A DNA stretch of 34,626 nucleotides from a virus. Location: positions 1 through 34,626 of the IMG/VR virus record IMGVR_UViG_3300016665_000058; one strand, given 5' to 3'. The notes under the pieces were generated by a model, which made no database searches, was not told where the DNA came from, and saw only the letters and a program-made list of their open reading frames with translations. The position numbers and the translations under genes are program-made. Of the stretch, positions 23,450 through 24,162 are shown piece by piece (the stretch's first letter is position 1; each line of letters starts with the position of its first letter).

Positions 23450-23677
23450 ATGAGCACACGCATCTACCTGGTCACCGATGTGGATACCAACAAACACCGC
23501 CTGATTCGTGCAGGCAACCAGGCGCAGGCCATCCGGCACGCCGCACAGACCCGGTTCGACATTGAGGTGGCTGGCCAAGACGATCTGGTGAGCCTGCTTA
23601 CCAGTGGCATCCCTGTCGAGATGGCTGGCGCTGGTGCCACAGTGGACATGTTTGAAGAAGCACAGGAGGCAGCATGA
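23450..23677 (+). CDS. Hypothetical protein, 75 aa
   Basis: The ATG at 23450 (MSTRIYLVTD) is preceded by GGAGAAAACA. Confidence 0.55.
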   Translation: MSTRIYLVTDVDTNKHRLIRAGNQAQAIRHAAQTRFDIEVAGQDDLVSLLTSGIPVEMAGAGATVDMFEEAQEAA

Positions 23678-24162
23678 AACGCTACATCGGAACAAAACTG
23701 ATCAACGCCAAGCCGATGACACGGCAGGCTTACAACAACTTCAGAGGCTGGACTTTGCCAGCCGAAGAGAACGGTGCCGACGAGGGTTACTTGGTCGAAT
23801 ACGTGGATGGCGGCAAAGGCAACACCGACCATTACGCTGGTTACGTGAGCTGGTCGCCTGCCGACGTTTTCGACCGTGCTTACCGTCCGTGCGAAGGCAT
23901 GACTTTTGGCCAGGCAATCGAATCGCTGAAGTCTGGCCAGAAGGTCGCACGCAAAGGCTGGAACGGCAAAGGCATGTTCGTGTACTACGTGCCAGCCAAT
24001 GCTTATCCGGCACAGACTGGCGTGGCCAAGAGTCACTTCGGCTCTGATGCGCTCGTTCCATACAACGCATACATGGCCATCAAGAACGTAAACAACACGG
24101 TGAGCACTTGGGTGCCAAGTGTCAACGACTGCTTATCAGAAGACTGGGAGATCGTGGAATGA
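23674..24162 (+). CDS. Two-domain protein with C-terminal DUF2829 (Tad2-type) domain, 162 aa
   Basis: The C-terminal [33 protein letters not shown]...[17 protein letters not shown] is the DUF2829 signature. The N-terminal [23 protein letters not shown]...[11 protein letters not shown]...[14 protein letters not shown] is a separate conserved phage module. Confidence 0.7.
   Translation: [162 protein letters not shown]

Follow-up and report, generated by a model that had tools for sequence, protein, structure and literature searches.

A two-module gene with a Tad2-like domain

The window analysed here is a complete virus record of 34,626 bp with direct terminal repeats (IMG/VR record IMGVR_UViG_3300016665_000058). 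It carries a gene (P0001; 23674..24162, stop codon included, + strand) whose 162-amino-acid (aa) open frame has two modules and whose product we read as a putative counter-defence protein built from two modules, of the same type as gp49 of coliphage N4. The N-terminal module, here called X (residues 1-73; 23674..23892, + strand), has no Pfam family and is defined by its AlphaFold2 fold and its recurrence in 1609 representative clusters. The C-terminal module (residues 76-161; 23899..24156, + strand) is a Tad2-like domain of the ModTad2-like subtype, recognised by PF11195, PDB sequence matches, and Foldseek. A Shine-Dalgarno sequence, AGGAGG (23664..23669, + strand), lies 4 nucleotides (nt) before the ATG of the X-Tad2 gene. 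The TGA of an upstream 79-aa open reading frame (ORF; 23438..23677, + strand) overlaps this ATG (ATGA), which suggests translational coupling, and the start of a downstream 50-aa ribbon-helix-helix (CopG/Arc-like) gene (24159..24311, + strand) overlaps the stop codon (ATGA, 24159-24162). Because of the AGGAGG sequence and the ATGA overlaps at both ends, the X-Tad2 gene is real and probably translationally coupled.

The earlier note had assigned residues ~76-162 to DUF2829, the family of Tad2, which it described as sequestering the glyco-cyclic ADP-ribose (gcADPR) signal, and had proposed the protein as a candidate sponge for immune signalling nucleotides. In a hidden Markov model (HMM) search, PF11195 (Tad2-like, DUF2829) matched residues 76-161 end to end (profile positions 1-73 of 73) with an E-value of 1.3e-25 and 90.1 bits, the gathering cut-off being 25 bits. 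A genome-level search gave identical coordinates. The best match among PDB sequences was ModTad2 (9EIB and 8V3E; E ~2e-30, 109 bits), which is 55-60% identical to this domain over its full extent, with a single 2-residue gap in the insert region. HgmTad2/AcrIIA7, SPO1 Tad2, and SptTad2 scored 65, 61, and 51 bits, respectively. An AlphaFold2 model of the full-length protein as a single chain had a mean predicted local distance difference test score (pLDDT) of 93.2. Its best Foldseek match was ModTad2 with histidine-ADP-ribose (His-ADPR) (9EIB_B; E 8.8e-12, target template-modelling score [TM] 0.82, root-mean-square deviation 2.6 Å, 55% identity), and all 24 matches at E<=1e-3 were Tad2 structures, whose fold is an N-terminal helix and then an antiparallel sheet. 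These results confirm the assignment of residues 76-161 to the Tad2 family and bear out the structural likeness anticipated in the note.

The ADP-ribose (ADPR) pocket of HgmTad2 comprises W21, N22, W87, L88, S90, T92, and D93, of which W21/N22 and S90/T92/D93 were mutated by Li et al. In the alignment these positions correspond to W96, N97, W146, V147, S149, N151, and D152 of the present protein. Five of the seven are identical, the exchange of L for V is conservative, and that of T for N is a difference. SPO1 Tad2 (gp34.65; 8SME/8SMF/8SMG) and HgmTad2/AcrIIA7 (8KBI-8KBM) have the Pfam family, the fold, and the GWNG and W..S..D pocket motifs in common with this domain. However, both are more distant from it (61-65 bits) and lack X; SPO1 Tad2 binds gcADPR, and HgmTad2 has a longer insert, to which cyclic dinucleotides bind. 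ModTad2 (MoTad2), from a Myroides odoratus prophage (8V3E, apo; 9EIB, with His-ADPR), matches the C-terminal 87 aa, has an insert of equal length between the strands, and shares the pocket motif PSV(S/N)D. ModTad2 is a stand-alone protein of 88 aa without X, and its ligands have been shown experimentally, whereas those of the present protein are predicted from homology.

ModTad2 sequesters the type II Thoeris signal His-ADPR and, by means of a second pocket, also cyclic UMP and CMP (cUMP/cCMP) of Pycsar; it does not inhibit type I Thoeris. Tad2_68, whose insert is of the same type as that of the present domain, is scored as an inhibitor of type II Thoeris (Hadary et al. Table S2). In a subclade test, this Tad2 domain was nearer to ModTad2, with which it shares the insert architecture, than to the gcADPR- or cyclic-dinucleotide-binding Tad2 proteins. 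By homology, the Tad2 module is very likely a signal sponge, and the chances that His-ADPR is its ligand are about even. The earlier proposal of an immune-nucleotide sponge therefore stands as the best reading by homology, but gcADPR is not the likeliest ligand, because the nearest characterised relative, ModTad2 (109 bits against 61 for SPO1 Tad2), has His-ADPR and also cUMP/cCMP as its ligands and spares type I Thoeris.

The N-terminal X domain, its partners, and its distribution

Residues 1-75 had no Pfam match even at an E-value of 10 and no NCBIfam match. A search with them alone against 1.84 billion representatives retrieved 1609 representative clusters at an E-value limit of 1e-3 and 846 at a limit of 1e-10. 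The proteins were 92-354 aa long and carried X at the N-terminus, at the C-terminus, or internally. When 150 sequences were aligned (this protein and 149 of the 150 best representatives), four positions were invariant, R24, P29, G38, and W60, and ~27 more were conserved at >=90%. Polar and aromatic residues predominate among those that are near-invariant (R17, N21, R24, W26, E42, D45, N50, and Y70). AlphaFold2 predicted X alone, as a single chain, with a pLDDT of 95.3 and a predicted TM of 0.82 in the order strand-helix-strand-strand-helix. In the single-chain models the strands span residues 2-5 (an N-terminal edge strand), 9-16, 37-43, and 57-62 and are accompanied by two helices. Two long conserved loops occupy residues 25-36 and 44-56. 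X is short, phage-restricted, and mildly acidic (isoelectric point [pI] 5.7), with conserved K8, R17, and R24.

The fold of X had no recognisable counterpart among the structures searched. Foldseek of the X model against the PDB returned nothing below an E-value of 3. The best VIA-align score over 48,161 chains (Z 4.0, DUF1653, 3BE3), followed by Tudor, chromo, and CarD-like barrels at Z ~3, was not meaningful. A BFVD search with the X model gave homologues only, and the X profile matched PDB sequences solely through columns of the Tad2 partner. In hhalign comparisons with Tad2, Sequestin (PF21825), and Acb4 (PF13876), probabilities were 0.1-0.5%, indicating no relation. The N-terminal 73 aa are a real, separately conserved domain, in agreement with the note's description of a conserved module of ~70 aa fused to Tad2.

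To see what X is fused to, we used the 150-sequence alignment as the Pfam scan set and found Tad2 in 50 sequences, PF21825 in 40, and PF13876 in 20. PF21825 is Sequestin, a sponge for 3' cyclic ADP-ribose (3'cADPR), and PF13876 has been used for Acb4, a sponge acting on CBASS (Tal et al., bioRxiv 10.1101/2025.07.12.664507). A domain census of 151 rows, consisting of the query and the 150 best representatives chosen by similarity to X, was dominated by X-Tad2 (46/151) and X-Sequestin (24/151). The same domains also occurred as Acb4-X-Sequestin (7/151), X-Acb4 (6/151), Acb4-X (5/151), X-Tad2-Sequestin (4/151), X-Tad2-Tad2 (3/151), X-Sequestin-Tad2 and X-Acb4-Sequestin (2/151 each), and Sequestin-X, X-Sequestin-Acb4, and Tad2-X (1/151 each). 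In the remaining 49/151 rows, X had no recognised partner. Some of these 49 are frameshifted Tad2 fusions; one, P0154, joins canonical X to an RyR-type domain; and the tail of another weakly resembles Acb2 (PaP2 Acb2, E 0.02). The ESM Atlas lists an X cluster with PF24729 (Acb2/Tad1 hairpin).

Sequestin was itself discovered through its fusion to Tad2 and Acb4 (Tal et al., bioRxiv 10.1101/2025.07.12.664507). Table S1 of that preprint holds many X-Sequestin fusions and Table S4 two divergent X-Lockin fusions, and its text does not mention the X domain. Having no Pfam family, X would have escaped a Pfam-based screen. Judged from sequence matches, X is joined to at least four sponge families, namely Tad2, Sequestin, Acb4, and RyR Tad, and probably also to Acb2; with the divergent X on Lockin, the number is probably six. 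The supplementary tables of the same preprint also contain a minimal Pseudomonas X without the helix and loop. On a tree of the X domain from 102 representatives (FastTree, 75 columns; weak), the partner type switches at least 36 times, which is near the 38-51 times obtained when labels were shuffled and is taken only as a sign of frequent partner shuffling on X.

Joining and shuffling of small anti-signalling domains among phages is also known from sponge-sponge fusions, such as Acb4-Tad2 of Pasteurella phage Pm86, Tad2-Sequestin, and Acb4-Sequestin gp59 of phage Ab09. Each half of those fusions is a proven sponge; for X, an activity is only proposed. Identity of X with Lockin, Acb5, or TadIV-1 was considered and is probably to be rejected, as X has no PDB match and is itself fused to Lockin in the two Table S4 entries; Lockin is hexameric and reported to be absent from INPHARED genomes. 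Identity with Tad3 is unlikely, since Tad3 by description uses N-terminal helices and X again has no PDB match.

Some fusions point beyond the recognised families. In P0138, P0132, P0230, P0256, P0194, and P0208, canonical X is followed by C-terminal regions of 70-130 aa without a Pfam match, and P0138 and P0132 have a Cys/His/Trp-rich C-terminal module in common. By guilt-by-fusion, these regions could be further unrecognised anti-signalling domains. In P0181 (354 aa), HNH_3 and AP2 lie in frame between the X domain and the Tad2 domain; this may reflect a homing endonuclease inserted in an X-Tad2 gene or two genes read through.

The combination of X and Tad2 is not unusual, having been found in PHROG 872, N4 gp49, and 57/80 related IMG/VR loci. 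PHROG 872 covers the whole protein (E 2.7e-64), a near-length search yielded 5432 homologues, and 91 phage genomes had a match spanning >=80% of the protein. Coliphage N4 gp49 (160 aa, PHROG 872) is X-Tad2 over its full length (42% identity, E 2e-42). No published functional characterisation of gp49 was found in a literature search. The insert in its Tad2 part is shorter than, and different from, that of the present protein. N4 gp49 adjoins gp48, which is an Acb4 gene, within the anti-signalling hotspot that precedes the virion RNA polymerase, a hotspot described in N4-like phages (bioRxiv 10.64898/2026.06.04.730250). In contrast, searches of the present genome found no Acb4, Sequestin, or Acb2/Tad1-hairpin gene elsewhere in this phage, and its X-Tad2 gene sits after an Erf-exonuclease-SSB module. 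The X-Tad2 fusion is thus widespread, and this copy is an unexceptional example of a large, uncharacterised architecture.

Using a stand-alone X to search IMG/VR, we retrieved 80 loci. The X gene had the form X-Tad2 in 57 of them, X by itself or joined to an unknown tail in 10, X-Sequestin in five, Acb4-X in three, and three-module forms in the rest. A separate Acb4, Sequestin, or Tad2 gene adjoined the X gene in 29/80. At one locus (L028:3001-3485) the architecture is split between two genes with a 4-nt overlap, one for X (74 aa) and one for Tad2 (87 aa), and therefore the X and Tad2 modules can be made as separate polypeptides. Short X clusters are few (87 versus 1609 representative clusters), so X is mostly fused. 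The stand-alone X genes (70-85 aa) fall into 41 clusters, in which all 31 invariant residues are kept at >=0.88 and 30/31 at >=0.93. In a 58.8-kb, 95%-complete phage record with a stand-alone X, no Tad2, Acb4, or Sequestin was found, and positive-control records did show them. Erwinia phage phiEaP8, an N4 relative, carries a stand-alone X at the gp49 position.

Possible roles of X in the X-Tad2 protein

One relative of X has been studied experimentally, in a preprint of June 2026. RyR Tad, a new sponge, is gp68 of Pectobacterium phage vB_PatP_CB1, and its C-terminal RyR domain alone is sufficient against type I Thoeris (bioRxiv 10.64898/2026.06.04.730250). The crystal structure of RyR Tad shows a swapped N-terminal domain, with strand 1 completing the five-stranded sheet of the partner, and both domains contribute to the dimer (bioRxiv 10.64898/2026.06.04.730250). 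We recognised a divergent X in residues 4-68 of gp68 (36% identity over 67 aa by BLASTP, E 4e-6; E 2.6e-9 with the X HMM) and found that P0154 aligns with gp68 end to end (E 2e-27). These matches indicate homology of X to the N-terminal domain of gp68. A core is kept in gp68 (K8, A12, P14, M15, P29, G38, L40, V41, Y43, Y57, S59-W60-S61-P62, and F66), and the canonical X residues R17, N21, R24-G25-W26, E32, E42, D45, G47, N50, and Y70 are missing. RyR Tad and the present protein thus share a two-module design, an X-type N-terminal domain followed by a C-terminal sponge. They differ in that the sponge of RyR Tad is RyR-Repeat12-like rather than Tad2, its X is divergent, and it is a dimer binding gcADPR. 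The strands of X in the single-chain AlphaFold2 models would be compatible with a swapped dimer. The RyDEP preprint holds nothing on X.

We consider it probable that X-Tad2 is a Tad2 sponge combined with a dimerising partner module, which probably has a binding function of its own. The Tad2 module would most likely form a Tad2 homotetramer with pockets at the protomer interfaces. These pockets would sequester an ADP-ribose-type alarm molecule made by a TIR (Toll/interleukin-1 receptor) domain, His-ADPR in the case of type II Thoeris, and perhaps Pycsar's cUMP/cCMP as well, so that the host effector would stay inactive. X would probably dimerise through a swap of its first strand, by homology to RyR Tad, and so staple the sponge protomers together, and it may additionally bind a ligand or host protein of its own. 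Taken by itself, dimerisation of X is more plausible than not by analogy with the RyR Tad crystal, and a binding activity of its own is a slightly less than even prospect. The suggestion in the earlier note that the two-domain form could have an altered oligomeric state has indirect experimental support, as RyR Tad has a homologous N-terminal domain, which dimerises by domain swapping.

The evidence on X pulls two ways: the RyR Tad crystal points to a dimeriser, and the stand-alone genes and conserved polar residues point to something more. That X binds something of its own is suggested because the stand-alone genes keep the same invariant polar and aromatic residues. Canonical X would be more than a holder of protomers because stand-alone genes persist and because the polar residues, conserved in canonical X, are absent from the inactive gp68 domain. 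Along this line, we tentatively entertain, at somewhat longer odds than a binding activity as such, that canonical X is an anti-defence module with its own target, acting either as a new sponge family for a signal that so far has no sponge or through direct inhibition of a defence protein. X-Tad2 proteins, N4 gp49 among them, would then be two-pronged, and the N-terminal domain of gp68 would be a degenerate dimerising core. Several observations weigh against the reading of X-Tad2 as a sponge with a partner module that binds on its own. Residues 1-86 of gp68 alone were inactive, with only type I Thoeris reported (bioRxiv 10.64898/2026.06.04.730250), and X is absent from all 84 sponge homologues that Hadary et al. 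tested. The higher conservation of X (58%) than of the attached Tad2 (35%) is inflated, the set having been chosen by similarity to X. In addition, the position of T92 of HgmTad2 is N151 here and S in ModTad2, and ligand specificity is not readable from sequence.

X might instead be an assembly or stability module only, a swapped dimeriser that lowers the concentration needed for sponge oligomerisation or links oligomers and itself recognises neither a ligand nor a target. We regard this as rather doubtful. The strand swap and the two-domain dimer of RyR Tad, together with the inactivity of the gp68 N-terminal domain alone and the sufficiency of the C-terminal domain, argue for it, as does the prevalence of fused over short X clusters, and the sponges that X is joined to are dimeric, tetrameric, or hexameric, all even-numbered assemblies. 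However, X genes that stand alone (73 aa) have been retained with every invariant residue, one of them in the near-complete phage lacking Tad2, Acb4, and Sequestin. Furthermore, the eight near-invariant polar and aromatic residues of X are those missing from the gp68 N-terminal domain, and gp68 may be a stripped-down version. Somewhat less likely still is that X represents a new family of sponges, specific to another immune signal, which would make the protein a two-sponge fusion like Acb4-Tad2 or Acb4-Sequestin. The guilt-by-fusion logic that previously yielded Sequestin favours this possibility, and a Pfam-less X would escape such a screen, leaving the X-Sequestin fusions of Table S1 unremarked. 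X is also short and phage-restricted and occurs alone or fused in any order within sponge gene clusters. The criteria for nucleotide sponges are a short phage protein, homo-oligomer formation, and a positively charged pocket at the protomer interface (Tal et al. 2025). On the other hand, X is mildly acidic, it is unrelated to Tad2, Sequestin, and Acb4 in hhalign, and the gp68 N-terminal domain had no activity against type I Thoeris.

X could also be an inhibitor that binds a defence protein and blocks it directly. Tad3-Tad8, which block ThsB or ThsA in this way, are small phage proteins that are dimeric or insert loops, and X has its two long conserved loops; an X of this kind would pair a block of signal production or reception with sequestration of the signal. 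We think this improbable, since X matches no PDB entry in sequence or fold, the field's own deposits included, and a target common to Escherichia, Vibrio, Pseudomonas, and Burkholderia hosts would need high conservation. It is least credible of all that the Tad2 module is an AcrIIA7-like anti-CRISPR rather than a signal sponge. AcrIIA7 structures (8KBI and 9KZR) are among the sequence matches, but the inhibition of Cas9 by AcrIIA7 (HgmTad2) was not reproduced by Li et al., who showed sponge activity, and the present protein is much nearer to ModTad2 than to AcrIIA7.

The Tad2 half adds little by itself, being one more member of a well-studied family and a probable His-ADPR-type sponge from a phage of proteobacterial type. 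The main value lies in X, a 73-aa domain that recurs in ~1600 clusters and has neither a database name nor a relative of solved structure in the PDB. Should X prove to have a ligand or target of its own, a function would be gained for thousands of phage proteins, among them one of the model phage N4, and X could serve as a capture reagent for a new immune signal, as ModTad2 did. If X is only a dimeriser, the assembly of sponges would be a selected and transferable trait.

Genes surrounding the X-Tad2 gene

The X-Tad2 gene lies in a run of packed + strand genes. Preceding it, in order, are genes for an Erf-type annealing protein, a RecE/YqaJ-type exonuclease, two small proteins of unknown function, and a single-stranded DNA-binding protein (SSB), and then the 79-aa ORF, which had no PHROG or Pfam match. 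The annealing protein, exonuclease, and SSB make up a recombination module directly 5' of the X-Tad2 region (21280-23438, + strand). In N4-like phages, the sponge hotspot is likewise interleaved with SSB and recombination genes. After the X-Tad2 gene come the 50-aa ribbon-helix-helix gene, several small genes of unknown function, and genes for a MazG-like pyrophosphohydrolase and an HNH/AP2 endonuclease (+ strand). The product of the ribbon-helix-helix gene matched Pfam RHH_5 (E 8.2e-8) and Arc (E 7.8e-5) and the Arc-like/ParG-like families of PHROG, so the Arc-like neighbour that the note had placed directly downstream is indeed there.

The MazG-like nucleotide pyrophosphohydrolase (183 aa; 24971-25522, + strand) is encoded ~800 bp downstream in the same operon. 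It matched PHROG 671 (E 2e-24) and had no Pfam match. As a nucleotide-hydrolysing enzyme encoded near a signal sponge, it might represent a second gene for counter-defence. A homing-endonuclease gene with HNH_3 and a weak AP2 match (26080-26580, + strand) lies 2 kb downstream of the X-Tad2 gene. Five small + strand ORFs near the sponge gene belong to no PHROG or Pfam family (23438-23677, 24308-24436, 24436-24588, 24585-24968, and 25519-26007), and these may be further accessory or anti-defence genes.

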